From the sequence record NC_052659.1: a stretch of 64,000 nt of DNA; one strand, written 5' to 3'. A model generated the notes under the pieces. It had not been told where the DNA came from. It made no database searches and was given only the letters and a program-made list of their open reading frames with translations. Of this stretch, positions 6,816 to 54,879 are shown piece after piece; the first letter of the stretch is position 1; every line of letters starts with the position of its first letter. Origin of the DNA: Escherichia phage nieznany. A program made the translations under genes and the position numbers.

Positions 6816-7057
6816 TCCGCTATTAACGTCAAACCAAGTGCATCGTTAAAACGCTCAACATTTGAGTATAGGTATGGAGGGGTTATTTGCTCTAAAATTT
6901 GTGCTGCTTCCACTTGGTGTTCTATGTTTTGAGAAGTTCGGGCATAAACTAAGACACCCATTTTATTCAAAATAAAAACAGAATCAGACCCATCCAGCTT
7001 ATCAACGGCTGCATACATTTTAGTCATATTTTCTCCTGGATTACCATTCAGCAACAA
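6809..7057 (-). CDS. hypothetical protein
   Basis: 82-aa ORF. Confidence 0.4.
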   Translation of the reverse strand: MLLNGNPGENMTKMYAAVDKLDGSDSVFILNKMGVLVYARTSQNIEHQVEAAQILEQITPPYLYSNVERFNDALGLTLIAEW

Positions 7058-7256
7058 GACTAGGATTCATAGCAAAAGCTTTGAAAGTTGTTATGTCATG
7101 ACTAACATTAAAACTAACACCTTTTACTTTCTCTAATATTTGAACTTTCGTCTCTCCGTCCCACGGTAGGATGATAACACCATCTTCTGTGATCAACCAC
7201 CAATGGTTCTCTCCATCTCGTGAATCTTTTGCTTTGTATAGAAAATTGGAACTCAT
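7041..7256 (-). CDS. hypothetical protein
   Basis: 71-aa ORF; TTGACA-N17-TTACAT promoter-like sequence upstream on minus strand. Confidence 0.4.
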   Translation of the reverse strand: MSSNFLYKAKDSRDGENHWWLITEDGVIILPWDGETKVQILEKVKGVSFNVSHDITTFKAFAMNPSLVAEW

Positions 7257-7457
7257 TCTTCCTCCTGTTCGGTATTATTCACCTGTGAGACACAATGTAA
7301 CACAAGTTTTGTGAGTTTGTCAAGGATCTAATTACATTCTACAGAAGAAGAGGGTTAATAACTATAGGAATAGTCTTACTATAGGTGCAATACTAGTTAA
7401 GAGTTAGATTGATAGGTAAGACTTATCTTAAACAGATAATTGATAGGTGAGTCACCA

Positions 7458-7520
7458 TTGACTTTTTCAAAAAAGTATGGTACCCTAAACATATGTTTAC
7501 GAGCGATAGCGAGTAGTAGA
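7458..7520 (+). repeat. about 60-bp repeated element (copy 1) with promoter-like TTGACT-N17-TACCCT and conserved CGAGCGATAGCGAGTA box
   Basis: Near-identical to 34420-34480. Confidence 0.45.
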
Positions 7521-7616
7521 TTTCTATATAATAATGTTTCATGTTACTCACGATAGTGAGGTATGAAACGTAAGTGAAGGTAGATAAACTATGATCATCT
7601 ATCTACCATCTATTAA

Positions 7617-7826
7617 TCAATATAGATCTAATGTTAGACTAACAGTTATCCAACAAACAATAGCAGTCCATATAACAAGTAATGATCTACAAACTACATC
7701 CCATTCGAATACATTGTATGTTAACCATTCTCCCATCACAACACAAGAACCTAACCAACATCCGACAATAACTATAATCCAATAAAAGAATCCTACAGTA
7801 GAGTATACAGCAAAAGCTTTTAACAT
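7617..7826 (-). CDS. small membrane protein
   Basis: 69 aa, hydrophobic segments; ATG overlaps upstream reading frame. Confidence 0.4.
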   Translation of the reverse strand: MLKAFAVYSTVGFFYWIIVIVGCWLGSCVVMGEWLTYNVFEWDVVCRSLLVIWTAIVCWITVSLTLDLY

Positions 7827-8239
7827 CTTTCCTCCAGAAGTTGTTCAACAGTTTGACGAGTATGATTGTCCCAGTAAACCTTAGTGAAGTCAAGAGTTCC
7901 TTGTTCGTTTCTCTTAGTTTCGAAGAAGTATCCGCCTTCTCTTTCTACTCTGTCTCTAATGTGCTCTATGAGGTGCTTTTTACAAGATGCTGATAAACAA
8001 TAGTCATACTCCCCACGAAGTAACGCTATAGCTGCAAGTCTGTTATCACCAACTTAAGATATTGTCCAAGAAAGCATACTACCTTCTATACCTAAAGGTG
8101 TTTGTCGAATGGAATATCCACCATGCCGACTGATAGAAATTATGGCAAGTGGTTCTCCTGTTAGAGATCTTCCTAATGCACCTTCTGTTGGACTTCCTTC
8201 AACAATACGTTTGAAAAAAGCTTTGATCTTACCTAACAT
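7820..8239 (-). pseudogene. reading frame interrupted by in-frame TAA (61 codons + TAA + 76 codons); pseudogene or readthrough candidate
   Basis: ORF 8054..8239 and a start-less 76-codon ORF (stop 7820-7822) are in the same frame separated only by TAA at 8054-8056. Confidence 0.35.
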
Positions 8240-8256
8240 AAGTCCCCCTTAAAAAC

Positions 8257-8391
8257 TTACTTGTTTAAAGTATCTCTTACTTGTTCTGCTTGACGTTTAG
8301 TAATAAAAGTCCCAACCGAAACGTTAAACTCATTGACTACAGAGAACGATCCATCACGGTTCTCACGAATATTAAACAATTTCTTACTCAT
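8257..8391 (-). CDS. small protein (44 aa)
   Basis: ATG preceded by GGAGGAGGTAGAA on minus strand; not in ORF track (<60 aa). Confidence 0.4.
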   Translation of the reverse strand: MSKKLFNIRENRDGSFSVVNEFNVSVGTFITKRQAEQVRDTLNK

Positions 8392-8587
8392 TTCTACCTC
8401 CTCCGATGCTTTGTGCCGTACCATCCCAAGCCATTAGAATATTTGCCAATAGTTCACGAGGCTCTTTAAACCAAACTTCCATTTCATCAAGAATCTCGTC
8501 CGTGTCGTAAGTATAACCTGGAACACCAAGTTCACATTTCTTAAGATAGCTTTCTAACCAGCGGTGATAATTCTTAACCCCATTCAT
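8384..8587 (-). CDS. hypothetical protein
   Basis: 67-aa ORF, start overlaps upstream stop. Confidence 0.35.
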   Translation of the reverse strand: MNGVKNYHRWLESYLKKCELGVPGYTYDTDEILDEMEVWFKEPRELLANILMAWDGTAQSIGGGRNE

Positions 8588-8960
8588 ACTGTGCTACCTT
8601 TTCTTTTACCCAATCTACACGATCTTTATCATAATGTTGAGTGCCAAGGAAAAGACCATTGTGGAAACTTTCCTCACCGAAAGGATAAATCGGATCTAAA
8701 CCATCTTCTTCAAATAACATTTTTAGTCTCTGTGATGTAGATTTCTTAGTTTCTGAGTTGTAGCTTGTGGTTATAAGCCAATCTTCCAAACAACGACACA
8801 AACCTTGACGAGAATCCCAAGGAAAAACACAATCTCCGACAGGAGCTTGTTCAGCCCATTTCAACCAGCCTTTAAAAAAGTTATACAGTATGTAGTCTTC
8901 AGTGTAATACATTATCTCCTCCTTTACGTATACAATAACACCCCGAAGAACGGGGTGCAA
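8574..8960 (-). CDS. hypothetical protein
   Basis: 128-aa ORF with GGAGGAG RBS. Confidence 0.5.
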   Translation of the reverse strand: MHPVLRGVIVYVKEEIMYYTEDYILYNFFKGWLKWAEQAPVGDCVFPWDSRQGLCRCLEDWLITTSYNSETKKSTSQRLKMLFEEDGLDPIYPFGEESFHNGLFLGTQHYDKDRVDWVKEKVAQYEWG

Positions 8961-8963
8961 CTG

Positions 8964-9575
8964 TTATTTAATCTGTTTGAAAATTTCGTTTGGAACGGTA
9001 CCGTTTAAAATACCTTCTACGATCTCCTGTGCAGATGTGTAAGAGAGTCCAAAAGAAGCTACGCCTAAAATTGCCTCCTTCAAAGGATCTGGCAGGGGTT
9101 CAAAATTACCTGCAACAAAGCCACCTGCACAAGCAGCGCCTTCATCATCCCAGAAAACAACTGCTACATCGTTACCATGCGAAGTTGTGCGATGTGCAAT
9201 AACTTCAACTTCGGTGCCTTCTTTAGGAACAGAATAAGAACTGTCCCAAGAATATCTTTCCAAATCAGGAACAAAGATAACCTTTTCACCTACTGGCGGC
9301 AGTTCACAACGATAATACCAAGAATTTTTTTCGTTCATTGTTTTATTTTCCTCCACGTCTTCAAAAGTAACGATCCAATCGTAGCCGTAAGAAAACGGAT
9401 ATTTTAGATCTAAAGAATAAGTTTGACCTAGATCGTCCTCAACAAGAACCATCCTGTCAAAGTTTGCGATGTTAGGATTATGTTTAATGATAGGGTATGT
9501 TTCCCCTACAGTAAATTGTCCCAAATGGTAAAGTTCATCTCTCCAAGTAATTTGGATATGAGTGCATTGAATCAT
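8964..9575 (-). CDS. hypothetical protein
   Basis: 203-aa ORF. Confidence 0.5.
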   Translation of the reverse strand: MIQCTHIQITWRDELYHLGQFTVGETYPIIKHNPNIANFDRMVLVEDDLGQTYSLDLKYPFSYGYDWIVTFEDVEENKTMNEKNSWYYRCELPPVGEKVIFVPDLERYSWDSSYSVPKEGTEVEVIAHRTTSHGNDVAVVFWDDEGAACAGGFVAGNFEPLPDPLKEAILGVASFGLSYTSAQEIVEGILNGTVPNEIFKQIK

Positions 9576-9579
9576 AAAA

Positions 9580-9852
9580 TCACCCCCAAGAAATATTTAT
9601 ATATCTTACAATGTTTGCACTGTCTAAAGCCATGTTTGCACCACACCCACGCTCGCGCCAGTAACTAACAATACCTTCACAGATACTTTCTTGTATCTTC
9701 TTATCACTTGGCATTTCTAGTATAAGACTTGGGTTGTGGATGTTTATGTTATAATATCCTTCCTCTGCGGCTTGAGCTACCAATTTACTTACTTTTTCAA
9801 AGTACGGGGAATTAGTGGCATCTGCCATTGTTTTTAAGGTTTGTCTATCCAT
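9580..9852 (-). CDS. hypothetical protein
   Basis: 90-aa ORF. Confidence 0.45.
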   Translation of the reverse strand: MDRQTLKTMADATNSPYFEKVSKLVAQAAEEGYYNINIHNPSLILEMPSDKKIQESICEGIVSYWRERGCGANMALDSANIVRYINISWG

Positions 9853-10250
9853 TATTCTGCCTCATCATAGAAGAAATCCAACTCTTGTTCCAGTTGTTTA
9901 ACTCGATCCTTAACCCACTGTACACGTTTTTCATTAAACATGCAACGTTTTTCCTTACACTCTTGCTCAAAAGATTTTGCTGTGTTAAATGGGAAAGTTG
10001 TATCTAAGCCAGCGTTTTCAAAACTGGCTAATTGCATACCATAAACAGAATATGCTAAAGAATGATCGGCTCGAAATTCATCACTTATATACATACGTAG
10101 ACCTCGGCATAAGCCAACATCAGCGTAACCACTTTCTCGTGGAAAGAGACGGAGGTGTTCTAACCAATTATTATAGAAATCTAAAAGAATCCTTTTACAC
10201 TTCAAATCAATTGTCATAAAAAGTTTCTCCTTCGTCGAACAAGTTGGCAA
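9852..10250 (-). CDS. hypothetical protein
   Basis: 132-aa ORF, stop/start overlap with neighbours. Confidence 0.5.
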   Translation of the reverse strand: MPTCSTKEKLFMTIDLKCKRILLDFYNNWLEHLRLFPRESGYADVGLCRGLRMYISDEFRADHSLAYSVYGMQLASFENAGLDTTFPFNTAKSFEQECKEKRCMFNEKRVQWVKDRVKQLEQELDFFYDEAE

Positions 10251-10617
10251 GATTGTTCACGGCAATCTGCGTGGAAAGAAGACAACTGTTTGCAGACACA
10301 TAAGCACGAGCTATTTTGTAAACATAGGCTTTCGTATTACAATTGTCCAGGATCGGAAGACTTTCGTCGATAGCATCTATAACACTAAACATCACATCTA
10401 AAACTTTAATGGTGAGTGTTGTATTTGTATCTTCGTAACCTTTTTCAATCCGACCTGAATAGAAAGCATAGTCCTCAACAGTTCGTCGTTTAAACTGCCG
10501 CATAAAATCGGAACCATCTGTAGCAGAATTGAACAAATTTTCAAAAAATACGTCCCATCCGGCAAAAAGGGCTGACAGCATGATTAAGTGATCTACAGAT
10601 TCATTTTCTTGTTTCAT
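10207..10617 (-). CDS. hypothetical protein
   Basis: 136-aa ORF. Confidence 0.5.
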   Translation of the reverse strand: MKQENESVDHLIMLSALFAGWDVFFENLFNSATDGSDFMRQFKRRTVEDYAFYSGRIEKGYEDTNTTLTIKVLDVMFSVIDAIDESLPILDNCNTKAYVYKIARAYVSANSCLLSTQIAVNNLANLFDEGETFYDN

Positions 10618-10625
10618 ATCCTCTC

Positions 10626-11303
10626 CTATTTAATGTTAAGTCTGGCACACAAACGAGAAACAGTTTTAGCATCCCATTTACCACCACGTGCTGTTGCTAT
10701 TTTCTTACTATTGAATTTTTCAGCAATAGTTTTGTAAGGTGTATTTAAATCTCTAAGGATCTCCAAGCGTTCACGGAATGTCTCTGCAAAAGCGTCTGCT
10801 TTAACAGAGTTGTATTCCATTTTTCCTTTTCTACGTGCAGCGGCAGTTTTAGGATTAGCACTACCTAATAAAACACCTTTACTTTTTGCTACAGCAAGAC
10901 CCTTTTTAATGCGATCAGCAATGCCTCTAACTTCTTGTTCAGCCAGAACAGATAGAAGTTGTATAACCATTTTATCTGCGTCTGGCATGATGGCTATCTT
11001 AACATCGATCATTTCTAGAAGAGTTGCTACGGAGGCGTTGTTACGACCCAAGCGGTCAACTTTAGCTACCAATAAAGTTGCTCCGGTAGCTTTACACATT
11101 TCAACCGCTTTAACCAGTTCCTTACGTTGCTTCCAATCGCCCTTACCCGAATAGTATTCAGAAAATTGACCAATAACTTCAGCATCAGGCACAGAGTCTA
11201 AGAAGTAACGGATATCGTTCTCTTGGCTCTCCATACCATATTGTGCCTCACCTTTTTTCTGTTTAGAAAGACGACTGTAAACAACAAACTTTTTCATAAC
11301 CAC
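10626..11303 (-). CDS. serine recombinase (resolvase/invertase family)
   Basis: N-terminal VVYSRLSKQ (catalytic Ser region), LLVAKVDRLGRN and LAEQEVRGIADRIKKGLAVAKSKG match resolvase/invertase conserved blocks; C-terminal HTH-like tail. Confidence 0.65.
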   Translation of the reverse strand: MVMKKFVVYSRLSKQKKGEAQYGMESQENDIRYFLDSVPDAEVIGQFSEYYSGKGDWKQRKELVKAVEMCKATGATLLVAKVDRLGRNNASVATLLEMIDVKIAIMPDADKMVIQLLSVLAEQEVRGIADRIKKGLAVAKSKGVLLGSANPKTAAARRKGKMEYNSVKADAFAETFRERLEILRDLNTPYKTIAEKFNSKKIATARGGKWDAKTVSRLCARLNIK

Positions 11304-16132: not shown

Positions 16133-17771
16133 ATTATGCTCCTTTGTAGATTATGTTGGTGCGTTCACACTCTGCCACCAGCAAGCCAAGCTTTGTAAAA
16201 CTTCATTAGACGTAAGCTACTCAACGGAACATTTTTACTCTCTTGCATGATAATCTCCTCTCATCGTTAGCCATCTTTCATGGCAATCATCAATCACCAA
16301 CATCATACGATCAATCTTAGGGAATTACAATCGAATTATCATAGGGGATTCCTATCAATTATCCCCTATATACCGATTATTTTTGACACCCCACTCTTGT
16401 ATAAAAAGTAACCCAAAATATCTACGGGGAGAGATTATTTCGGGACACCCTGTTTCATGGCAATCATGGCAAGAATATCTAATAGAATCAATATCATATG
16501 GCAAAAATCATGGCGCATACGTAAGAAGTGCTTAACGCGAATTTTCGGGCCGTCAGGTCCACGCAGCGACAATTCCCAAATATCATGCGAATGAGAATAA
16601 TTATCATTCGTATTCAATGACTTATGCAAAGCTCATGCCAACGTAGCGACAAGGTGGGCCACTTGATTATAAATCACACAAACACTTATTTATCAATGGT
16701 TTGGCAACCTCATCATATGACGGAACAATGTCAACTAATCCCGCTCATGACAAGCAGACTATTATTTATATGAGAATGATTATTATTTAAACGTTTATTA
16801 ATATAAAAACTAGAATAAATCAAGATTATTCTGATTTTATTTACGTTTAAGAGAAGGTGCTCAACATATCGCGTAGCGATAGTATTCGCCCCCCAAAAGA
16901 TTAGCCTTTATTTTCTTGTATGTTTATACACTATGTGCACACTATGCAACCTGTCGCTATTCGCTCATGTTGCTACGTGCAATTATTCATCTTGCTAATG
17001 ATGATCACACTGAACGATAGTGATAACTCTTGTAATTACCACAATGATTATTGTTATTGCGCTAATGTTATGATCTTGGTAATTACATATAATGCTAATA
17101 ATAAGCCAGCGCAATAAGTGTAAGCGTCATTACGCTTGCAATTATTGCAAGCTACGCAGTAACAAGAAATAACCGTCACCGATGGTTATGATTGTTGGGG
17201 TGTAGTTGGCTTATTATTAGCTCGCTATGTGTCCGGCATAGCGTGCTAATGATGACTCTGTGAATGATTAGTTTTGTAATGATTTCATTCAGGCACTATT
17301 TTGCTAATAGTTATTATTTTAATGGTTTCGTTTGTTATTGTTCGTTAGTTGGTTGTTTTGTCATGTTATCGTTATTTTGCTTAGTATTCATCATGGTTTG
17401 ATTGTTTGTCGTTATCAATCATCTTGCTATTATTCCTTTGATTATGATTAGTTTGCTTATTGTTTTATGTTGTTTGTTGGTTAGTTGTTGCGAACTATTA
17501 TCAACATTATAGTTATGCACTTATATTGCATAGATAAACATGGATAGATGATAATGGTTATCATTGCACCAGAAAGGAGGTAAAAGGGTGTTTTTGATGG
17601 TTTGTTGTTGGTTGTTGATCGATTTTAACCGCTTTAAATGGCTCTCTAACAGCCTGTAACCCTGGGATGTATGGTTATTCGTTTGCTGGTTGATTAGCTC
17701 GATACCACGATTTATTCAGTTTTGTTCTGTGTCGGTTTTTCATAGGCGAAAGCTATCAACATTGTTCGGGC
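16133..17771. other. 1.6-kb gene-free region with repeated motifs and strong GT skew (17220-17700); candidate origin or non-coding locus
   Basis: No credible ORF; repeated CATGGCAATCAT and GTAGCGAC-type motifs; G+T-rich plus strand. Confidence 0.5.
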
Positions 17772-18382: not shown

Positions 18383-18682
18383 TTAGATCGCTGTTTCCAG
18401 TAGTTCGGCTAACGTCTTACCGCCTGATAGTTGGTCTAACGTTTGCTCTTCTGGCAAGAAATTAGCTGATATTAAACCGACTTGATTCCCTTTGTGCCAG
18501 TTAGCCTGGCGGATGATTCCATCCTTTAAGGATTTTACCGCCATTGTGCAACCGTCGCCAAATGATTCATTTTTATGGTCCATCACTTCATAAGCGCCCA
18601 GTTTGCTGCTGTTAGGCACCATTAACGCGAACACATCACCAACAACCAGTTTTTCTACGGTAACAATAGCGATAGTTTCCAT
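18383..18682 (-). CDS. small protein
   Basis: 99-aa ORF downstream of promoter-hairpin module. Confidence 0.45.
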   Translation of the reverse strand: METIAIVTVEKLVVGDVFALMVPNSSKLGAYEVMDHKNESFGDGCTMAVKSLKDGIIRQANWHKGNQVGLISANFLPEEQTLDQLSGGKTLAELLETAI

Positions 18683-18700
18683 TTTATTTTCCTCATTATC

Positions 18701-18757
18701 GGCGGCACCATTGCCGCCCTACAAGATACATATTACCAGACTAAGCCGACTTGTCAA
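18701..18757 (-). promoter_or_regulatory. promoter (TTGACA..TAATAT) plus 5' leader stem-loop GGCGGCA-CCAT-TGCCGCC
   Basis: -35 complement at 18752-18757, -10 complement at 18730-18735, hairpin 18701-18718, then RBS. Confidence 0.5.
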
Positions 18758-18758
18758 A

Positions 18759-18869
18759 CTATTTTTTCTTTTTCTTTGCTTCCAACCGTCTAAGGTTACG
18801 GCTGGACTTATTACGCAAGGCGCTCAGATCGTCGTACCCTTTCCATGCTTGCATATCTTTCGGATTCAT
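18759..18869 (-). CDS. micro-protein (36 aa, basic C-terminus)
   Basis: ATG preceded by AAGGGGG; below ORF-track length cutoff. Confidence 0.3.
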   Translation of the reverse strand: MNPKDMQAWKGYDDLSALRNKSSRNLRRLEAKKKKK

Positions 18870-18878
18870 GTTACCCCC

Positions 18879-19040
18879 TTACTTGTTAGCCGGATCATAT
18901 ACCAGGACCGCGCCACTTGCTTTCACGCTTTCCGCTTCATAGTTGCGCAAATCGTTTTCTGTAAGATTGAGCGCGATCACTTCCTCGATCTCGATACCAG
19001 TGGCAAGGGCGATCTCTTTGATAATGTCTGCTATTTTCAT
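18879..19040 (-). CDS. small protein
   Basis: Internal ATG at 19040 chosen so as not to overlap neighbour. Confidence 0.35.
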   Translation of the reverse strand: MKIADIIKEIALATGIEIEEVIALNLTENDLRNYEAESVKASGAVLVYDPANK

Positions 19041-19050
19041 GGTGTGTACC

Positions 19051-19170
19051 TTATAAGATGATTGATAAGATAGTGACAACGAAAGCGATTATACTGATGG
19101 CAAATGTCATCTTTTTACCTTCGGATACTGCCGGATTCTCTACCGTGTATTCTACTGTGTACTTGCTCAT
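19051..19170 (-). CDS. micro membrane protein (39 aa)
   Basis: ATG after GAGAGGA RBS; hydrophobic C-terminus; downstream of promoter-like module at about 19194-19250. Confidence 0.3.
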   Translation of the reverse strand: MSKYTVEYTVENPAVSEGKKMTFAISIIAFVVTILSIIL

Positions 19171-19267
19171 CGTGTAATCCTCTCGTTTGCTTTGGGGACT
19201 ATTCCCGCCGCCCTATGAATTAAATATACACTATCTCAAAATGATTGCAAGCCTTTTTCTAAATTAT

Positions 19268-19552
19268 TTATGCAGTAAACAAACCATCATTTACAACGGC
19301 GGCGATGATCTCCCGTGCCATTGATTCAGGGAAAGGGGCGCTATAGTCCTGGCTTGTCTCGTCGGTGTCAGTGATACAATGATAAGCTAACGAGTAAAAG
19401 CCTTTACTAACTGTTTTCAGTGAGACGATGATCACTCGGTCAAGCTTATTGGTGAATGTTGCCGTTAATGTGTTACCCTCCTGCGTCATGTTGGACAAGT
19501 AAGCGAGATCATTAATCAGGGAAAACATTAGCACGGTGTTAGCTTTACTCAT
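19268..19552 (-). CDS. small protein
   Basis: Start at ATG 19552 after GAGGATG RBS. Confidence 0.45.
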   Translation of the reverse strand: MSKANTVLMFSLINDLAYLSNMTQEGNTLTATFTNKLDRVIIVSLKTVSKGFYSLAYHCITDTDETSQDYSAPFPESMAREIIAAVVNDGLFTA

Positions 19553-19568
19553 GATTGCATCCTCAAAG

Positions 19569-19617
19569 GGGCGCGGCACCATTGCCGCCCTACACGATAA
19601 CTATAACACAATGTAAA
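19569..19617 (-). promoter_or_regulatory. promoter-like sequence plus leader stem-loop (GGCACCATTGCC family)
   Basis: Hairpin 19569-19590; -35-like TTTACA complement at 19612-19617. Confidence 0.4.
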
Positions 19618-19623
19618 ACAGGA

Positions 19624-19830
19624 TCAACCTTTATTTTTCCACGGTGTCAGCTTGTTAATCATTGGTGATAAATAGCGTTTACCAACGTAAAACAGTACGC
19701 CAACTGATGCAACGGCGGCGACCTCATGCATAGCCGACGGGAAACGGGTATCATAATAAGATCCAATAATAGCGATAGCGGCAACGGCTGCAACGTCGAT
19801 AATGATTTTTTCTTGTTTTGCGGTGATCAT
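19624..19830 (-). CDS. small membrane protein
   Basis: 68 aa with hydrophobic core AAVAAIAIIGSYY. Confidence 0.45.
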   Translation of the reverse strand: MITAKQEKIIIDVAAVAAIAIIGSYYDTRFPSAMHEVAAVASVGVLFYVGKRYLSPMINKLTPWKNKG

Positions 19831-19852
19831 AATATTTACCTTTTTGTATGGT

Positions 19853-19909
19853 GGGGAACTATTCCCCGCCTGATGTAATACAGTTTAACAGGTCCGGTTA
19901 TGGTGTCAA
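19853..19909 (-). promoter_or_regulatory. promoter (TTGACA-N17-TAAACT) plus leader stem-loop GGGGAATAGTTCCCC
   Basis: -35 complement 19904-19909; hairpin 19853-19870. Confidence 0.5.
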
Positions 19910-19915
19910 CCGTTT

Positions 19916-20101
19916 TTAAAGATATTTTATGCTAATAACGTTTTCCGGTTTAACCTTGTTATAATGTGCATCAACATAGATCAAACCATCGTCAGAAAAG
20001 CCCAGGATCACGCCCTGCGCAATAAAACCGTATTCGTCACGGTAACGCACGGCTATTTTTAATGTTGCGCTGTACGCTGTTTTAAGCTCGTTTAAAATCA
20101 T
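19916..20101 (-). CDS. small protein
   Basis: 61-aa ORF. Confidence 0.4.
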   Translation of the reverse strand: MILNELKTAYSATLKIAVRYRDEYGFIAQGVILGFSDDGLIYVDAHYNKVKPENVISIKYL

Positions 20102-20123
20102 TTTTGTTTATCCTCTACATGTA

Positions 20124-20156
20124 AAAAGAAAGGGCGCTTGGTGCGCCCTTGTTATG
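20124..20156 (-). terminator. terminator candidate (second copy of AAAGAAAGGGCGCTTGGTGCGCCC element)
   Basis: Hairpin 20132-20148 with flanking T/A runs. Confidence 0.5.
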
Positions 20157-20303
20157 TTAATCCTCTAAATCCATCCAATTATATTTGTCACTCTTCCCGC
20201 GCTTTGTTTTATTACGCTTGTCGCCTTTGCGGATCACTTCCTCGTTCCAGGCCTTGCGGATCTTGGAAGATTGAATTTTTTCTGCGCGATTAGATGTATT
20301 CAT
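20157..20303 (-). CDS. micro-protein (48 aa, basic)
   Basis: ATG after GAAGAGGAAA RBS. Confidence 0.35.
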   Translation of the reverse strand: MNTSNRAEKIQSSKIRKAWNEEVIRKGDKRNKTKRGKSDKYNWMDLED

Positions 20304-20322
20304 TTTGTTTCCTCTTCATATG

Positions 20323-20376
20323 AGCGGCACCATTGCCGCTATATTGTTAATTTAAACTGTTTTGTAAAATTGTCAA
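20323..20376 (-). promoter_or_regulatory. promoter plus leader stem-loop
   Basis: Hairpin 20323-20340 (AGCGGCACCATTGCCGCT); -35 complement 20371-20376. Confidence 0.5.
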
Positions 20377-20382
20377 GGTTTA

Positions 20383-20736
20383 TCATTCATAAGAGCAAGC
20401 AAGGATCACGCCTGCAATATAAAGCCAATAATTTTCCCTTTCTCGTTGGATTTTATCATCGCGGCTATTCTCTTTAATGTATCCCCAGGATGTTAACAGG
20501 CGATCAATTTCCCAATATTCGAAAGCGATATTGATATCTGATGGCAAACCTTGTAACCATGATGCAAGTGCTTTAACAATACTATAATTAAAACGTGATT
20601 GGTTATCAGGGTACCAGTACTCGGAATTAAAACGGCGCATCAATTCCGCGATCTTCTCTTTTTCGGTTGTAATACCGTAATCATTAAAATCGATAGCGGC
20701 AAGGATGTACTCTTTAATTGCATTTTGTGCTTTCAT
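20383..20736 (-). CDS. small protein
   Basis: 117-aa ORF with AAGAGAGAAAG RBS. Confidence 0.5.
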   Translation of the reverse strand: MKAQNAIKEYILAAIDFNDYGITTEKEKIAELMRRFNSEYWYPDNQSRFNYSIVKALASWLQGLPSDINIAFEYWEIDRLLTSWGYIKENSRDDKIQRERENYWLYIAGVILACSYE

Positions 20737-20755
20737 GGTCTTTCTCTCTTTTTGA

Positions 20756-20812
20756 GCGGGAGCTATTCCCGCCCTACGTGTAACAGTTTACTGAAAATTA
20801 AATCCGTGTCAA
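20756..20812 (-). promoter_or_regulatory. promoter plus leader stem-loop
   Basis: Hairpin 20756-20772 (GCGGGAGCTATTCCCGC); -35 complement 20807-20812. Confidence 0.5.
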
Positions 20813-20815
20813 GCT

Positions 20816-21037
20816 TTATTTTGTTACTACCATTTGGTACCCTGTTTCAATGTTAGTAAATACTGTTATCCCGTCCTGGCGTTCACTCATTAGCATACAA
20901 GGCGCTAACATCCTTTCTACTGCCTTGCACTCGTTGTAAACGGCGGTTATATCTCCTGCGGCCTTGTCTTCTGTAGTAAATGTCTCGTTTACGTAAACCT
21001 GACCAGCAACAACGGCGACAATAGCAAAAGTGATCAT
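20816..21037 (-). CDS. small secreted or membrane protein
   Basis: Start at internal ATG giving MITFAIVAVVAGQVYV hydrophobic N-terminus. Confidence 0.4.
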   Translation of the reverse strand: MITFAIVAVVAGQVYVNETFTTEDKAAGDITAVYNECKAVERMLAPCMLMSERQDGITVFTNIETGYQMVVTK

Positions 21038-21116
21038 AATGTTTTTTCTCTTTATGTGTTTCGTTTCAATTAGTTGATAATACAGCAATTTGCAGATTAG
21101 TCTTTAGCAATTCATG

Positions 21117-21335
21117 CTATTTACTCACAACAATATCGAAAACAAATTTTTCTTTGTTGTCTAAGCTCACGTATCCGATTCGACCACGCAATCCGAGAGT
21201 AGTGCCGTATTCGTAACCATCAAGACCTTTAACCTTCCAATCCATGCCCATTAAAACCGCATTATATTTCTGACCAACTACAAAAGCGCCACCAGTTGAT
21301 TCAATGCAAACAACTTTAATTTTACGGATTGCCAT
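21117..21335 (-). CDS. small protein
   Basis: 72-aa ORF; upstream TTGACT-N16-TATAAT on minus strand (about 21378-21410). Confidence 0.45.
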   Translation of the reverse strand: MAIRKIKVVCIESTGGAFVVGQKYNAVLMGMDWKVKGLDGYEYGTTLGLRGRIGYVSLDNKEKFVFDIVVSK

Positions 21336-21412
21336 TTTCTTTCTCTCTTTCTGGTGATTGGTTTCTCTTCTCTATAGCGCCCATTATAAGGCGCTATAAC
21401 GAAAAGTCAACG

Positions 21413-21582
21413 ATTATTTTTTAAGGCTTAAAGTACCTAACTTGTCAGCATGACGTAGACCAGGGAAGATCCATTTTCCTGATTCATCTTTTACAGGGGC
21501 TTTAAGCGTAGCGCCCAGGTTGGCGGCGTTAACTTTACGTGCAACGTTGCGAGCGGCTTCACGGGTAGCGAAAGTGATCATG
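21413..21582 (-). CDS. micro-protein (55 aa)
   Basis: ATG with RBS; CGT/CTG-rich codons; below ORF-track cutoff. Confidence 0.4.
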
Positions 21583-21605
21583 ATATTTTCCTCTTCTCTT
21601 TGTTA

Positions 21606-21667
21606 GGCGGTGGACCATTCCGCCGCCTTGATGTAATACAGTTTACTCTTTTTCTTTCCCGTGTCAA
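21606..21667 (-). promoter_or_regulatory. promoter plus leader stem-loop
   Basis: Hairpin 21606-21627; -35 complement 21662-21667. Confidence 0.5.
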
Positions 21668-21676
21668 CAATCTTTT

Positions 21677-21904
21677 TCAGATTAATTCATCCAGGCATAA
21701 CAGGCGATCAACGTTGAGATCGGTCAGGCTGATGGTTGGCACCTGGTAGGATTCGATGTACTCGACGCTTGCATATTCCCCAAAATTAGCAATAGCCCAC
21801 TTATTCAAGATCTCACATACATCATTAATCTTTTTGTTTGTTACAACTGCAATAACCTGGGAAGTGCCAACGGTGCCGGATACGCGAACAATATTGATAG
21901 CCAT
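21677..21904 (-). CDS. small protein
   Basis: 75-aa ORF. Confidence 0.45.
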   Translation of the reverse strand: MAINIVRVSGTVGTSQVIAVVTNKKINDVCEILNKWAIANFGEYASVEYIESYQVPTISLTDLNVDRLLCLDELI

Positions 21905-21926
21905 AATCTTTAATCTCTCTGTTGTT

Positions 21927-21986
21927 GGCGGGAAACCACTTCCCGCCCTATGTGATACATCTTACACTAATTTTAAACGTTGTCAA
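21927..21986 (-). promoter_or_regulatory. promoter plus leader stem-loop
   Basis: Hairpin 21927-21947 (GGCGGGAAACCACTTCCCGCC); -35 complement 21981-21986. Confidence 0.5.
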
Positions 21987-21995
21987 CTGTTTTTA

Positions 21996-22235
21996 TTACA
22001 TTCCAACCATCGCGGCGCGGATCGCTGTAGTGCTATACTTGAAACCGTCTGGAGTTTTATCTTGTCCAGTTTGTTCCAGGAATAACATCATATCACGGGC
22101 AGCATCATTACGATTAGTATTAGCGGCGATAAATTCTTTCGCCAACCGATATAATGATTCATCGTTATTAATCCAAAGGCTTACATTCCAGTGAGTTTTA
22201 TTTTTGTGACCTAAGAACATTTTTGATTTAGCCAT
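21996..22235 (-). CDS. small protein
   Basis: 79-aa ORF. Confidence 0.45.
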   Translation of the reverse strand: MAKSKMFLGHKNKTHWNVSLWINNDESLYRLAKEFIAANTNRNDAARDMMLFLEQTGQDKTPDGFKYSTTAIRAAMVGM

Positions 22236-22259
22236 GATATTAATCTCTTTTTCAGTGAG

Positions 22260-22318
22260 GCGGGAAGTATTCCCGCTCTCTATGTAATACAGTTTACTCT
22301 TTTTATTCGTGCTGTCAA
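22260..22318 (-). promoter_or_regulatory. promoter plus leader stem-loop
   Basis: Hairpin 22260-22276 (GCGGGAAGTATTCCCGC); -35 complement 22313-22318. Confidence 0.5.
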
Positions 22319-22324
22319 TGCTTT

Positions 22325-22690
22325 TTATAAATCTTTTTTACGTTTAACATCGCTCGCATGACTGTATACAGTGATCCCATTGTCACGGCAAAAACGGGAA
22401 AGATACGCGCCGCGTGAAAACTCTTTACCTTCCATATTAATAACCTTGCTAAATTCTTCCAGGGCGACGGTATCAAAATGATCACCATAGCCATATTGAA
22501 ACGGAACGTTAACCACCTCGATCAGTTTACCGCCGATCTCAACGTCAACCATTAAAGAAAAATATGTGTTACCGTAAGACTGTTGAAACCAGCGACGGGC
22601 GCTAATGTGCACCGCTTCAATGCTGGATAATTCAATTTTAGCCGTGTTAGCCAGGGTAGCATAAGCGGAAACATTGATATTAATAGCCAT
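22325..22690 (-). CDS. small protein
   Basis: 121-aa ORF. Confidence 0.5.
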   Translation of the reverse strand: MAININVSAYATLANTAKIELSSIEAVHISARRWFQQSYGNTYFSLMVDVEIGGKLIEVVNVPFQYGYGDHFDTVALEEFSKVINMEGKEFSRGAYLSRFCRDNGITVYSHASDVKRKKDL

Positions 22691-22716
22691 GATGATAATC
22701 TCTCTTTTTGGTTAGT

Positions 22717-22769
22717 GGGAAGTATTCCCGATAAAAGTTATTATGCTTATACTATCACTCATTGTCAAT
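22717..22769 (-). promoter_or_regulatory. promoter plus degenerate leader stem-loop
   Basis: GGGAAGTATTCCC 22717-22729; -35 complement 22764-22769. Confidence 0.4.
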
Positions 22770-22787
22770 AGTATAAGACTAAAACTT

Positions 22788-22967
22788 TTAACGATAATCG
22801 TTATAGGCTTTATTGACCTGGCGAATGTAACATTCGAAAGCAAGATCAATGTATTCGTATTCACGCACATAATCACCATAGGTCACTACATACATTTTTA
22901 AAGTTTCCTCATAAGCCAGGAGGATCGAATCTAAACCTATAATCTCAGTTTTTGCAATGATAGCCAT
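22788..22967 (-). CDS. micro-protein (59 aa)
   Basis: ATG-initiated ORF downstream of promoter module; below ORF-track cutoff. Confidence 0.4.
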   Translation of the reverse strand: MAIIAKTEIIGLDSILLAYEETLKMYVVTYGDYVREYEYIDLAFECYIRQVNKAYNDYR

Positions 22968-22987
22968 GATGTTAACCTTTTATTGTT

Positions 22988-23044
22988 GGCGGCACCATTG
23001 CCGCCCTACGTGATAAACTATACCAGAAGTTTAAACAGTGTCAA
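22988..23044 (-). promoter_or_regulatory. promoter plus leader stem-loop
   Basis: Hairpin 22988-23005 (GGCGGCACCATTGCCGCC); -35 complement 23039-23044. Confidence 0.5.
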
Positions 23045-23050
23045 CCGTTT

Positions 23051-23413
23051 TTATTCGTAAATTTTACCGCTTTCGGCCCATACCATAACGCGGCGCATAC
23101 TATCCCAAGTGTTTTGATCCAAGTTTAAGCCGTGCAACTCTTCGGTACTTCCCAGACCAGGTACCGCTTTGTTGTAAGTCGCATATAAGCGCCCTTGATA
23201 CTCATACGCCAGAGTAAGATCCGTTTGAATCATCTTTTTAAGCATAGCATTAAGCATCATATTAGCGGCATGTTGATCACGTTTTAGCGGTAACATGTCA
23301 ATAAGGGCGCGATAAGCTGAAACATGAATATCAACCGTTTCACGTGGTAAATTTTTCATATCATCGCGGAAAGATACCAGATTAAACATGATAGTATTGA
23401 TTTGCTTGCTCAT
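23051..23413 (-). CDS. small protein
   Basis: 120-aa ORF. Confidence 0.5.
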   Translation of the reverse strand: MSKQINTIMFNLVSFRDDMKNLPRETVDIHVSAYRALIDMLPLKRDQHAANMMLNAMLKKMIQTDLTLAYEYQGRLYATYNKAVPGLGSTEELHGLNLDQNTWDSMRRVMVWAESGKIYE

Positions 23414-23434
23414 TGTGTTACCCTTTTTTGTTTT

Positions 23435-23495
23435 GGCGGGGAAGTATTCCGCCGCCCTATGTGATACATCTTATCAGATTAAAAAACGTTGTCAA
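23435..23495 (-). promoter_or_regulatory. promoter plus leader stem-loop
   Basis: Hairpin 23435-23456; -35 complement 23490-23495. Confidence 0.5.
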
Positions 23496-23503
23496 GAATA
23501 TTT

Positions 23504-23599
23504 TTAGAAAATAATAGCCGCTACTACAACCCAAAATGGAACGGCTAGAATGATAGCGTTAATCGTTCCAACCGTCAAGCTATTTTCTTTATTAATCAT
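23504..23599 (-). CDS. micro membrane peptide (31 aa)
   Basis: ATG after AAGAGG; entirely hydrophobic core; has its own promoter-hairpin module. Confidence 0.3.
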   Translation of the reverse strand: MINKENSLTVGTINAIILAVPFWVVVAAIIF

Positions 23600-23627
23600 T
23601 GTAAGCCTCTTGCATAATTTCACTATG

Positions 23628-23685
23628 AGCGGCACCATTGCCGCCCTACGTGGTAAATATTATGCCAGTGGCGGCGATATGTCAA
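23628..23685 (-). promoter_or_regulatory. promoter plus leader stem-loop
   Basis: Hairpin 23628-23647; -35 complement 23680-23685. Confidence 0.5.
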
Positions 23686-24248
23686 AGACTATTTTCAAAG
23701 TTTTCTAGTGCGATCCTTTTTTCTTCCTCTGTCGGCTGATAATCAGGAAAAGCATCAACACACAACAACGGCGGGATCTCTTCGTACTCTTCCTCTTCCG
23801 TTGTCTCCTCGTCTTCCTCCTGGGCTATGGCTGCAATTTTGGCTAATTTTCTTTCAGCTTGAATCAATTTACCATCAAGTACGTTTTTTGCCATGTTGTA
23901 AGCGGTCCAGGTGATGCGCTTACTTTCCAGGGCCTGATCGAGCGCCGCTATCTTGCTGGGGTATTCATCCAGGACACGAAAAGCTGGATCAACTTTGTAC
24001 AAAGGATTATCTTTCGCGCCGTCGCTCGCATCTTCCGCACTGGATAAATCAGCGTTACCATTTGCCAGCCAGCCAGGGCGCACATAACGCGCTTTTACGT
24101 TGCCGTTACTACGTGCTAATCTGTTACCTATTTGCTCACCACTATATCCCGTGGATTCATCGATAAGATGATCGGGAATGATGCGCGGATCATCTGCTTC
24201 ATGTTTTACCCAAGACTGGATCACATATTCGCGGCCCATATTAACCAC
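23682..24248 (-). CDS. hypothetical protein with acidic linker
   Basis: 188-aa ORF, largest in the array. Confidence 0.5.
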   Translation of the reverse strand: MVNMGREYVIQSWVKHEADDPRIIPDHLIDESTGYSGEQIGNRLARSNGNVKARYVRPGWLANGNADLSSAEDASDGAKDNPLYKVDPAFRVLDEYPSKIAALDQALESKRITWTAYNMAKNVLDGKLIQAERKLAKIAAIAQEEDEETTEEEEYEEIPPLLCVDAFPDYQPTEEEKRIALENFENSL

Positions 24249-24498
24249 CTTTTTTCAACAATTGGCATACTTTAAAAAGACTTGCTGAATCCTTGCAAGG
24301 GTAGAAAGATGTACGATAATCACGTACGCCAACCTTGAGGATCTCGATGTTCTCGCATGTTGTTTGATCAAAGATATTTATTTCATCACGCCCCCTTATA
24401 TAAACATAGTGGGGATGTATTAACGCATATTTTGCTAATCTGTAAAAAGCGTTATCTTTGAACGCGATCACGTGACCTTTTAATTTGATGTAAAACAT
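24241..24498 (-). CDS. small protein
   Basis: 85-aa ORF, AAGGTGG RBS. Confidence 0.45.
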   Translation of the reverse strand: MFYIKLKGHVIAFKDNAFYRLAKYALIHPHYVYIRGRDEINIFDQTTCENIEILKVGVRDYRTSFYPCKDSASLFKVCQLLKKGG

Positions 24499-24515
24499 TC
24501 TACCACCTTACAAAT

Positions 24516-24571
24516 AGCGGGAACTATTCCCGCTTTATGTAACATATTAACAAATTATTCGTTAATGTCAA
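24516..24571 (-). promoter_or_regulatory. promoter plus leader stem-loop (a second -35-like TGTCAA at 24614-24619)
   Basis: Hairpin 24516-24534 (AGCGGGAACTATTCCCGCT); -35 complement 24566-24571. Confidence 0.45.
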
Positions 24572-24574
24572 GCC

Positions 24575-24847
24575 TTAAAGCAAAAACGCTACATCTTGCG
24601 CTTTTAATGTAGTGTCAACCATTTTCGGGCTTTTATAATCAACAAAGCGCGCGGTTTTTTCAATAGCAAAACCGAGATAATCTTGTTTATTGAATTTACA
24701 TTCTTTCTTAAATGTTTCCCGCGCCACGGTGATCGCTGCGTCCAGGGATAAACGCCCGTCAATATTGATATTAGCGAAAGATCCGCCACCGCTCATAGGT
24801 TTACCAGTTGTGCCAGCTACGATCATTGTTGCGCTATATGATGCCAT
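24575..24847 (-). CDS. small protein
   Basis: 90-aa ORF. Confidence 0.45.
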   Translation of the reverse strand: MASYSATMIVAGTTGKPMSGGGSFANINIDGRLSLDAAITVARETFKKECKFNKQDYLGFAIEKTARFVDYKSPKMVDTTLKAQDVAFLL

Positions 24848-24872
24848 GATGATAATCTCTCTTCTGTTACGA

Positions 24873-24932
24873 GCGGGAAACCACTTCCCGCCCTATGTGA
24901 TACATCTTATCAGGTTGTTGTTTGTTGTCAAT
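24873..24932 (-). promoter_or_regulatory. promoter plus leader stem-loop
   Basis: Hairpin 24873-24891; -35 complement 24927-24932. Confidence 0.5.
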
Positions 24933-24937
24933 AGTTT

Positions 24938-25135
24938 TTATTCTATTCCTGCAATTTGATTAACGCGCTTGCATTTTGTAGCGTGCTGGTCTTCTGTAAT
25001 GACTCCCATTTCTAACAGGGAATCAATGAAAGATAAAACCGTTTCATGATCATCCTGGGGGTGACTGAACTCAGTAAAACCGTTTACCACTACGTTGATT
25101 TGTCCAGCTTTCGCCACAATGTGCAATGTTGCCAT
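24938..25135 (-). CDS. small protein
   Basis: Start at internal ATG 25135 with GGAG RBS, downstream of hairpin 25154-25172. Confidence 0.45.
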   Translation of the reverse strand: MATLHIVAKAGQINVVVNGFTEFSHPQDDHETVLSFIDSLLEMGVITEDQHATKCKRVNQIAGIE

Positions 25136-25153
25136 GATCTTAACTCCAAATAG

Positions 25154-25213
25154 TGAGCGGCACCATTGCCGCCCTACAAGATGAATACTACGCCGCCGTC
25201 TGGTTAACGTCAA
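25154..25213 (-). promoter_or_regulatory. promoter (TTGACG -35) plus leader stem-loop; first module of leftward array
   Basis: Hairpin 25154-25172 (GAGCGGCACCATTGCCGCC); -35 complement 25208-25213. Confidence 0.45.
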
Positions 25214-25616: not shown

Positions 25617-25974
25617 GTTTTACATACAGAAGAGGAAGCGCCACCCCCACGGCGTAAAGGCGGGGCTAACATACCAGGGGGCACTGGTTGGAAGGTTGAT
25701 CGCCGGTAGGCTGGGCGCTATATATTTGTAAAGAAATGTAAAGATAAAATAATCGCTTGCTTTCCTAGCTGGATCTGTTATTCTTATTACATGGCGAGGG
25801 GACACGGGAGCGCGAGACAAACACCGCCCCTGCGCGTCATTCTCTAAATGAGATTGATTCTTATTTAATAAGGTAAATGACAATCATTCTCATTTATAAA
25901 CTTAAATGCGAATCATTATCATTTGCATTTCCATATGAGAACTCTTCTCATTTTCACCTGCATAAAAATTTTTG

Positions 25975-26155
25975 TAAACTTTAAATTTTGCTTTTGTACT
26001 TTCATTTTTGTAAAAGCAAAAAAACTTTAAATACTGTGGGCGCGCAAAATTTTTAAAATTTTCCTTGACTTTTGAGTTTTGTTTTGTATCTAACATTTTA
26101 AGATAATTTTCCTAAACTTTAAATTTTGGTTTTCAACTTTCACTTTTGTAAATTC
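25975..26155. repeat. two direct repeats of about 43 bp (25975-26016 and 26113-26155) in AT-rich intergenic DNA
   Basis: TAAACTTTAAATTTTG(C/G)TTTT..ACTTTCA.TTTTGTAAA repeated; AAACTTTAAA motif four times. Confidence 0.45.
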
Positions 26156-26302
26156 TTAAAAAGTTTAAATAATTTGAGGGATTTTTGAGATAAAAGATAG
26201 TGGGAATTTGATATAACCTTTAATCTTATTGGTAAACCTTCAGGAACCCACTCAGATCGAATCCTAGTGATGCAAACTGAAAAAGACAAGGGTTTGTATA
26301 GG

Positions 26303-33898: not shown

Positions 33899-34107
33899 GT
33901 GGATGGATTAAAGTATCTGGTACCGAGGATGTTCCTATCGGAGAGTGGCTTGTAATCATGGCAAACGGCAAGAAGGGATTCTGTGAAGTTAACAAAACAC
34001 GCAATGGCACGATAGCTGTTATCAATGGTCATTTTTATTTTGACTTGGCACCTGTGATCGCATACCATGCACTACCAACATATAAAGAGGAGATTAACAA
34101 TGGCTAA
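33895..34107 (+). CDS. hypothetical protein
   Basis: 70-aa ORF. Confidence 0.45.
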   Translation: MSGWIKVSGTEDVPIGEWLVIMANGKKGFCEVNKTRNGTIAVINGHFYFDLAPVIAYHALPTYKEEINNG

Positions 34108-34423
34108 CAAAGAACCACATGTATACACTGCACTGGTAAAGCACTTGAACAAAGAACGTAACAAGATCATTGCAGATTATCGTAAATTTAAACGTAGTAG
34201 TCTAAATCGTAAATACATGCCACATGCAGCTTTTGACGCTACACGTGCAGTATTTCGTGCAAAGATTGCGGAAATGGATAATCTGCTTAAGCTTGCACGA
34301 TTATCTATTCAGGCATCCAAAGTAACAGGGGTCACTCACTTCTTTGACTTCGATACTAAAGCACTATATGCACCAGAAGCAGGTGAACAATTGATTTCTC
34401 TACTTACCAAAAATAAGTGTTGA
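34100..34423 (+). CDS. hypothetical protein
   Basis: Start at ATG 34100 after AAGAGGAG RBS. Confidence 0.45.
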   Translation: MANKEPHVYTALVKHLNKERNKIIADYRKFKRSSLNRKYMPHAAFDATRAVFRAKIAEMDNLLKLARLSIQASKVTGVTHFFDFDTKALYAPEAGEQLISLLTKNKC

Positions 34424-34480
34424 CTTTTTTCAAAAAATATGCTACCCTAACCCCGAAGGGTCGAGCGATAGCGAGTATAG
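34420..34480 (+). repeat. about 60-bp repeated element (copy 2) with promoter-like TTGACT-N17-TACCCT and CGAGCGATAGCGAGTA box
   Basis: Near-identical to 7458-7520. Confidence 0.45.
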
Positions 34481-34592
34481 ATTATGTAATAGATTAATCT
34501 CTATCGTTAGATGTTCGAAGAACAGAGATTTAAGTACTTGTTCTTATCGGTAGATGATCGTAAGATCAAGAACAATAATAGGAGAGTGTGTT

Positions 34593-53573: not shown

Positions 53574-53574
53574 T

Positions 53575-54864: not shown

Positions 54865-54879
54865 TAGAGGAGACAAAAG

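Follow-up and report, generated by a model that had tools for sequence, protein, structure and literature searches.

Why should a phage genome carry the same short promoter-like element twice, once ahead of a gene and once aimed at the back of one? This is the situation in the 64,000-nucleotide stretch of Escherichia phage nieznany analysed here (NC_052659.1, hereafter the window), where copies of the element, each with a conserved box, lie at 7458-7520 and at 34420-34480. The window belongs to a Phapecoctavirus (phAPEC8/ESCO5-like; Stephanstirmvirinae), with 99.8% identity to DIJ07P1 and 99.5% to ESCO5 over 2 kb. From comparison with related phages we lean, at a little better than even confidence, towards each copy combining a sigma70-type promoter with a conserved hairpin in the 5′ leader, three such cassettes heading three transcription units. 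Copy 1 would probably make a short non-coding RNA rather than a messenger RNA. No Rfam family, annotation or publication was found for the element.

A probable promoter and hairpin in each copy

An earlier note on this DNA, made from the letters alone, had described a 60-bp element duplicated in the same orientation. Both copies are indeed on the + strand, and blastn of 7400-7649 against the window aligned 7458-7522 with 34420-34483 at 80.3% identity over 66 columns (E = 1.4e-8), all remaining matches having E values of at least 0.15. The exact 16-mer CGAGCGATAGCGAGTA, common to both, had no third match in the window with up to three mismatches (0.10 expected; 0/100 shuffles). A covariance model of the hairpin P1, described below, likewise found nothing beyond the two copies in the window (next hit 10.8 bits, E 3.8) and nothing extra in phi92. 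The size of 60 bp proved too small, the conserved unit being longer and reaching, around copy 1, from 7401 to 7607. The surroundings were correctly described: copy 2 lies upstream of a rightward gene, 116 nt 5′ of its ATG and with an AGGAG before it, and copy 1 points into the 3′ end of a leftward gene, sitting in the 360-bp gap between the open reading frames (ORFs) 7041-7256 and 7617-7826 and facing the latter. The box-to-ATGTTAG distance is 116 nt in both copies, and a homology of the two copies continuing past the box was discarded as not significant (148 of 1000 shuffles score equally).

The promoter part was examined in an alignment of 13 distinct copies anchored on the -10 hexamer. An A/T-rich tract lies upstream of every aligned copy. 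The -35 is TTGACT or TTGACA in 11 of the 13 and TTTTAC in two, the spacer is 17 or 18 bp in all of them with a sequence that drifts, and TG-n-TACCCTA is invariant (13/13). Start context is also kept, with a pyrimidine at base 6 and a purine at base 7 after the hexamer in 10 of 12 copies (C-G-A-A or T-A), which is the context preferred for initiation and lies at the canonical distance. Because hexamers and spacer length are fixed, the spacer sequence is free, the upstream region is A/T-rich and TG-n-TACCCTA does not vary, the pattern of conservation is, at the level of sequence, that of a sigma70 extended -10 promoter. The promoter anatomy that the earlier note had suspected is thus strongly supported by the relatives, in which the -35, spacer, TGn, -10 and pyrimidine/purine start are all retained.

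The box follows the -10 hexamer by 12-16 nt. Across the relatives it reads CGA-GC-G(N)NA-GC-GAG, with loops GAUA, GAAA, GGGA, GAA or GCA; its sole length change, of 1 nt, always affects the loop, and none of the 12 other positions varies. On each side, three or four flanking bases pair and co-vary in the P1 alignment (A3, 16 sequences), with pairing in 78% of cells. The score for this co-variation, 0.342, compares with 0.175 in shuffles (0/500 reach the observed value) and 0.10-0.18 with a slid partner, and column pair 7-26 is always paired, as U-A, C-G, U·G or G·U. Since the indels are confined to the loop and the flanks pair and co-vary, the box is, judging from these alignments, the top of a hairpin, P1. 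Its variable outer stem is followed by a C-G pair, then by tandem G·A/A·G mismatches and two G-C pairs, and G·A closes the loop. This structure would be strand-specific, because its complement would have C·U mismatches instead. A plain double-stranded protein-binding site, which had been proposed for copy 1, is not favoured, the box being a hairpin top with loop-only indels and co-varying flanks. No intrinsic terminator was called on the + strand at either copy and there is no U-tract after P1. A K-turn reading of the tandem G·A pairs was rejected by inspection, there being no 3-nt bulge. Searches of the window gave no Rfam match at the gathering threshold, local E-value searches returning only noise (17 bits or less), and no tRNA or tmRNA in a dedicated scan.

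The stretch between the -10 and the box had been left by the earlier note as an arbitrary N. This stretch is not random: in most copies it is a short inverted repeat, P0, of different sequence in each (a different 4-bp repeat in the two window copies; ACCT-GAA-AGGT in phi92-C). Summed over the copies, the stems of P0 amount to 37, compared with 24.9 after shuffling (p < 2e-4). Folding of P0 would require read-through RNA or single-stranded DNA.

Three cassette types and their leaders

Conservation in related phages, on which the earlier note had staked its reading, extends across several genera. Dozens of Phapecoctavirus records carry the element with 100% identity, and it recurs with 76-83% identity in Justusliebigvirus (phi92) and Klebsiella members of the Stephanstirmvirinae, and it is also found in contig L013. 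In the Phapecoctavirus, phi92 and Klebsiella records it is either unannotated or covered by a "hypothetical protein." Pattern scans and inspection of the whole genome gave exactly three copies in phi92, and two more relatives of ~150 kb, covered only as separate loci, yielded three each. The further copies that the earlier note suggested looking for include a third cassette of this phage, its type-B copy, outside the window and seen at 54.9 kb in ESCO5. Box and TACCCT motif always go together, neither being met alone, and no counterpart of the element was found in the E. coli chromosome. The hairpin, the third copy per genome and the conservation over several genera had all been overlooked in the earlier note.

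The copies fall into three types. Type A (copy 1 of the window, the gp023/gp024 gap of phi92, phiWec186, Klebsiella phage phi1_175008 and contig L013) is an orphan, opposite in direction to the surrounding small early genes. Type C (copy 2 of the window and phi92 gp208) heads small genes and then NrdA-like, helicase and ribonucleotide-reductase genes; 3′ of copy 2 there are two small ORFs of unknown function followed by an NrdA-like gene, a DNA helicase and a ribonucleotide reductase. Type B stands at a divergent junction and has a 220-270-nt leader, in phi92 at gp107 (PRPP synthetase, NAMPT, tRNAs) and in ESCO5 at 54.9 kb, where small ORFs and tRNA genes come next. That types A and C are paralogous promoter-plus-leader units follows from a 94-nt match (78%) between copy 1 and the leader of phi92 type C. 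In phiWec181, the first two genes 3′ of copy 2 have been replaced. Around copy 1, 7401-7607 aligns at 81.6% with L019, a phiWec186-like contig, as the sole well-conserved block of the gap; to its right there is no L019 counterpart across 7608-10863, the alignment resuming at 10864, and on the left side it is taken up again at 7257, with a weak 64% identity. Because the block is conserved against this contig while its neighbours are not, type A is, on comparative grounds, an autonomous, selected, non-coding module.

The antisense or non-coding role raised in the earlier note for copy 1 gains from its being an orphan without an ORF to serve, from a three-hairpin fold and from the autonomous conserved block. 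Its putative RNA (7493-7612) is predicted to form P1, P2 and P3, with a free energy of -32.2 kcal/mol (z = -3.1), and the type-A RNAs of phi92 and Klebsiella have z scores of -3.8 and -3.6 against shuffles. The position of the second hairpin is kept and its stems differ, being GUUCCUG/CAGGAAC in phi92-C, UUCCAUG/CAUGGAA in phi92-A and GUUC/GAAC in copy 2; it is also present in L013. RNAalifold on type-A RNAs from different genera suffered from a poor alignment and recovered nothing but the box. In the type-C leaders, a conserved UCUCUAU after P1 can pair with the ribosome-binding site UAUAGGAGA. Two other roles were considered for copy 1 and abandoned. A coding role for the + strand ORF 7591-7785 fails in that this ORF starts inside P3 and its phiWec186 equivalent stops after 21 codons, the two being alike in no more than their first six residues, which P3 itself dictates. 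As an antisense regulator of some other transcript of the window, the copy 1 RNA offers complementarities of at most 13 nt, which is chance level.

Put together, transcription would start at A7493 and G34455, and P1 (about +5 to +25) would form in the nascent RNA, giving a common, protected and recognisable 5′ end to three transcripts. Its purpose may be that of a 5′ stabiliser and/or of a site for a dedicated phage or host factor, in the manner of the nut and put leaders. The units headed in this way would be a replication and nucleotide-metabolism cluster (C), a tRNA-side cluster (B) and the orphan unit (A), from which would come either a ~115-nt non-coding RNA structured as P1-P2-P3 or a longer one, antisense to the leftward early genes. 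The features of both window copies are listed in Table 1.

Table 1. Positions of the cassette features and of nearby promoter-like sequences in the window.
Feature	Position	Strand	Sequence or description	Support
Copy 1, motifs	7458-7515	+	TTGACT 7458-7463; TG 7478-7479; TACCCTAA 7481-7488; CGAGCGATAGCGAGTA 7500-7515	
Copy 1, -35 hexamer	7458-7463	+	TTGACT	
Copy 1, extended -10	7478-7486	+	TGg + TACCCT, 17-bp spacer	
Copy 1, P0	7487-7498	+	AAAC-ATAT-GTTT, straddling the predicted start T7492/A7493	
Copy 1, P1	7497-7516	+	UUAC-GA-GC-GAUA-GC-GA-GUAG, core box 7500-7513	
Copy 1, P2	7534-7571	+	GUUUCAU...AUGAAAC, with inner hairpin CUCAC-GAUA-GUGAG	RNA fold
Copy 1, P3	7576-7610	+	GGUAGAUA...UAUCUACC, end of conserved block, no U-tract after it	
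Copy 1, whole type-A module	7401-7607	+	upstream repeats, promoter, three hairpins	
Repeats upstream of copy 1 -35	7409-7447	+	two TTGATAGG direct repeats (7409-7416, 7440-7447), 31 bp apart	
Leftward promoter-like sequence	7294-7323	-	TTGACA-18-TACATT with TG, for ORF 7041-7256, back-to-back with copy 1	consensus scan only
Copy 2, motifs	34420-34477	+	TTGACT 34420-34425; TG 34440-34441; TACCCTAA 34443-34450; CGAGCGATAGCGAGTA 34462-34477	
Copy 2, -35 hexamer	34420-34425	+	TTGACT, overlapping the stop codon of ORF 34067-34423	
Copy 2, extended -10	34440-34448	+	TGc + TACCCT, 17-bp spacer	
Copy 2, P0	34450-34461	+	ACCC-CGAA-GGGT; predicted start G34455, preceded by C34454	
Copy 2, box	34462-34477	+	CGAGCGATAGCGAG(TA), weak outer stem	28.3 bits, covariance model
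Copy 2, leader	34478-34595	+	GUUC-GAA-GAAC hairpin 34513-34523, further hairpin, AGGAG 34580-34584, ATG 34593	

The TTGATAGG repeats upstream of copy 1 are conserved in phiWec186 and L019, and the motif shows no enrichment across the window. A 13-nt exact copy of ATAATTGATAGGT, which is the repeat proximal to the copy 1 promoter, occurs on the - strand at 16351-16363, by itself at chance level. GCTACCCTAA may also resemble the sigmaS extended -10 (KCTAYRCTTAA), including the C at -13. A CarD/TRCF-like early protein melting TACCCT, hinted at by a note on phi92 gp001, was dismissed for want of Pfam support.

Some variation around the cassettes was seen in other contigs. Behind the third cassette (ESCO5 54.9 kb; contig L241, 1526-1838) stand five GTACT repeats, a pair of very A/T-rich blocks and another promoter-like sequence, TTGATC-17-TACAGT, after which come, in L241, a small ORF and then tRNA genes. 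The phiWec181 type-C leader (contig L021, 1260-1300) has an insertion of ~45 nt after the box with more TACCCT-like motifs, among them an inverted TACCCTAA that lies on the other strand. An unrelated phage of ~59 kb (contig L146, 2024-2161; about 25 similar IMG/VR contigs, e.g., L147, L148, and L157) has two divergent copies ~70 bp apart, of the form TATACCCTAT-C7-(A/T)ACGAGCG(A/G)AGCGAG-TGGG, directly upstream of the terminase large subunit and an SU10-type portal; TACCCTA and the box are thus found paired beyond the subfamily as well, although the search pattern itself demanded that pairing. The box alone is not diagnostic, because pattern scans of metagenomes and IMG/VR gave mostly unrelated G+C-rich hairpins, similar to repetitive extragenic palindromes (REP), that share it. 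Among the metagenome loci L025-L144, CGAGCG(N)AGCGAG with complementary flanks (e.g., GTCATCCCGAGCGAAGCGAGGGATC) is very common in G+C-rich bacterial contigs, and an A/T-richer group (L038, L067, L098, and L127) has TGCTACCCT and GCCGAGCGGAGCGAGGC. Contig L016 was discarded as a relative, being unrelated to phi92; its box looks like a terminator between convergent genes.

Known systems and rival readings

Lambda nut (boxA/boxB) and HK022 put are present in few copies per genome and place a small conserved hairpin with a GNRA-like loop after the promoters of long units. The cassettes resemble them as a few conserved small hairpins shortly 3′ of promoters heading long transcription units, but there is no sequence similarity or Rfam match, no boxA was found and no N-like protein was identified; in type C, the UCUCUAU after P1 looks like an anti-Shine-Dalgarno instead of boxA. 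Stabilising hairpins of the ompA 5′ untranslated region type are stem-loops a few nucleotides from the 5′ end that need no particular sequence. The predicted single-stranded 5′ tail of the cassettes (3-8 nt) fits this design, whereas their hairpin sequence is invariant across genera. The nut/put leaders and ops are the closest analogues in principle, and the closest concept is the cassette of the promoter-early stem-loops (PeSLs) of T4-type phages, both ops and PeSLs being treated below. The window itself holds on its - strand, at 18676-25185, at least 10 repeat units composed of TTGACA, 16 nt, TAAACT, GTATTACAT, a 9-bp G+C hairpin (e.g., GGCGGCAATGGTGCCGCC), a ribosome-binding site and ATG, which look like the true analogues of the T4-type PeSLs in this phage. 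These units make a 5′-hairpin design plausible and leave the invariant sequence of the low-copy class unexplained.

Several points weigh against a promoter fused to an RNA leader hairpin. TACCCT matches the -10 consensus at only three of six positions (T1, A2, and T6) and was missed by a simple consensus scan, and its invariant, non-consensus CCC is not explained by ordinary sigma70 recognition. The 16 P1 sequences represent three paralogous lineages, so that the co-variation counts are not independent, and in copy 2 the outer stem of P1 is weak and the minimum free energy fold of the leader omits P1. P0 cannot fold in the RNA of its own promoter because it straddles the predicted start. A discrete small RNA from copy 1 is not assured, because no U-rich terminator follows P3. 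We found no promoter or transcriptome study of the subfamily in the literature. Finally, the P1 core fits exactly the rule for extraordinarily stable DNA mini-hairpins, GCGN(N)AGC, a motif far more stable as DNA than as RNA (Kimoto and Hirao, 2026, PMC13037366).

This last point leads to an account that we regard as unlikely, in which P1 and P0 act as single-stranded DNA mini-hairpins on the exposed non-template strand. They would either be read in the transcription bubble, as ops is by RfaH, loading an elongation or antitermination factor, or be a signal for R-loop or replication-fork priming or an origin (G4, ssiA, or T4 oriF/oriG type), with the promoter opening the DNA. Three promoter-linked copies per genome resemble the transcription-activated origins of T4 and T7. 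Every box core fits the mini-hairpin exactly (GCGATAGC, GCGAAAGC, GCGGGAGC, GCGAAGC, and GCGCAGC), all loop variants in the 16 sequences of A3 obeying GCGNNAGC or GCGNAGC, and P0, which is unable to form in RNA from its own promoter, often has a C-GAA-G loop, that of copy 2 containing CCGAAGG, the ssiA mini-hairpin sequence. The known cases of GCGNNAGC/GCGNAGC are the priming sites of G4, St-1, and alpha3, RSF1010 ssiA and the early promoters of N4 (Kimoto and Hirao, 2026, PMC13037366). They act on single-stranded templates (G4 and ssiA) or on the template strand for the virion RNA polymerase (N4), whereas the cassette motif is on the sense strand, just after a sigma70-type promoter. A promoter for an N4-type virion RNA polymerase (5-7 bp stem, 3-nt loop, template strand, used by a giant polymerase that the phage encodes) was rejected for this reason and for the C·U mismatches of the complement, and the phi92 annotation lists no RNA polymerase. 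The resemblance to ops is of a similar kind. The 12-nt ops consensus is GGCGGTAGnnTG, in which G5 and T6 are read by RfaH, G5A abolishes recruitment and T11-G12 is the pause (Zuber et al., 2018, PMC5995543). Located on the non-template strand in the leader of long operons, ops (GGCGGTAGCGTG) contains GCGGTAGC, a GCGNNAGC hairpin, and the window box AGCGATAGCGAG matches it at 9 of 12 positions, with a C:G pair, a G·A pair and a two-base loop in common; the counterpart of C3:G8 and G4/A7 in the cassettes is the small hairpin GC-G(N)NA-GC of the sense strand, located 8-24 nt beyond the predicted start. However, the GATA copies have A at the critical position 5 and A-G in place of T11-G12, which led us to reject the box as an ops site, and the other copies have GAA, GCA, GAAA, or GGGA loops. 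Moreover, the co-varying outer stem makes a hairpin of at least 20 nt, larger than the 10-11 nt transcription bubble, and uses G·U/G·T pairs. By analogy, the same principle could operate with another factor. As to priming, the A/T-rich tracts after the type-B copies are better explained as upstream elements of a second promoter (TTGACT-17-TAGAGT/TACACT/TACAGT) than as unwinding elements, type C has only 116 nt before its gene, and the turns of the GC skew (~4 and ~32 kb) fall where gene orientation switches rather than at the copies.

Still less probable, in our view, is that the element is a PeSL-type unit, which would insulate from or attenuate transcription coming from upstream and offer a patch of homology for gene shuffling, the hairpin sequence mattering for stability only. 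PeSLs are composites in which a sigma70-like promoter is preceded by an A/T-rich tract and accompanied by a stem-loop, possibly just downstream of the -10; they work as promoter and terminator and flank exchanged ORFans (Arbiol et al., 2010, PMC2839356). The cassettes share this composition and also lie at boundaries where neighbouring genes swap between relatives, the genes adjoining both window copies being replaced there; P0 and P1 would both fold in read-through RNA, and the same box hairpin turns up as a generic REP-like structure across many unrelated bacterial contigs, and in L016 it is a likely terminator. But PeSLs are numerous, have GGGG...CCCC-type stems, act as terminators and cluster in hyperplastic regions between ORFans, while the cassette of the phi92/phAPEC8 type comes in three copies (two in the window) at conserved positions, in a different phage family, with a G·A-rich hairpin and no U-tract, and one of its copies serves no gene. 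It is the abundant G+C hairpin units at 18.6-25.2 kb that look like the true analogues. Conservation of TACCCTA and of 12 box positions across genera goes far beyond the needs of stability, and neither type A nor type B has a co-oriented gene upstream that would call for insulation. Least credible to us is a double-stranded operator, consisting of the box and/or TACCCTA, for a phage-encoded repressor or activator co-regulating the three promoters. The box at +8 to +24 would be in a classical roadblock position and contains two AGCGA half-sites, TACCCTA is invariant though non-consensus, and the type C of phiWec181 has the inverted TACCCTAA 50 bp downstream. Yet the half-sites are spaced by 5 or 6 nt and the distance to the -10 ranges over 12-16 nt, which a DNA-binding dimer would not easily accommodate, the flanking bases show hairpin co-variation, and there is no candidate regulator, Pfam having found nothing in the early ORFs tested.

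Other features of the window and significance

Beyond the cassettes, the GC skew of the window changes sign at ~4 kb (+ to -) and at ~32 kb (- to +), matching convergent and divergent switches of gene orientation. The region at 16-18 kb has a near-zero GC skew and a strongly negative AT skew, and by synteny with phi92 may hold the physical genome end. At 25967-26176 there are two 72-nt direct repeats, 138 bp apart, 82% identical and A/T-rich (AATTTT..TAAACTTTAAATTTTG...), with few long ORFs around. Short repeated coding-like segments were seen at 28396-28928 and between 53524-53601 and 54824-54906, which suggests tandem paralogous small genes in both cases.

Phages of the phi92 and phAPEC8 kind are widely isolated and are therapeutic candidates, and their transcription programme is essentially uncharted. 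The cassette marks three transcription units by a common, highly constrained signal and reveals an unannotated non-coding locus kept across genera. It may also provide a biological role for GCGN(N)AGC mini-hairpins in a double-stranded DNA phage. We are doubtful that TACCCTA and GCGN(N)AGC together form a promoter-proximal signal read as structure, in DNA or in nascent RNA, for factor loading or R-loop priming. If they do, the mini-hairpin would load a factor on RNA polymerase just after promoter escape, by the principle of ops/RfaH or put with a different specificity. Three long transcription units would become termination-resistant, and the orphan copy 1 would send polymerase antisense through the early genes, shutting them off; alternatively, replication would be primed through an R-loop. 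If the cassette is merely a promoter with a 5′ stabiliser, it would still be a useful annotation for these phages and a compact expression part.

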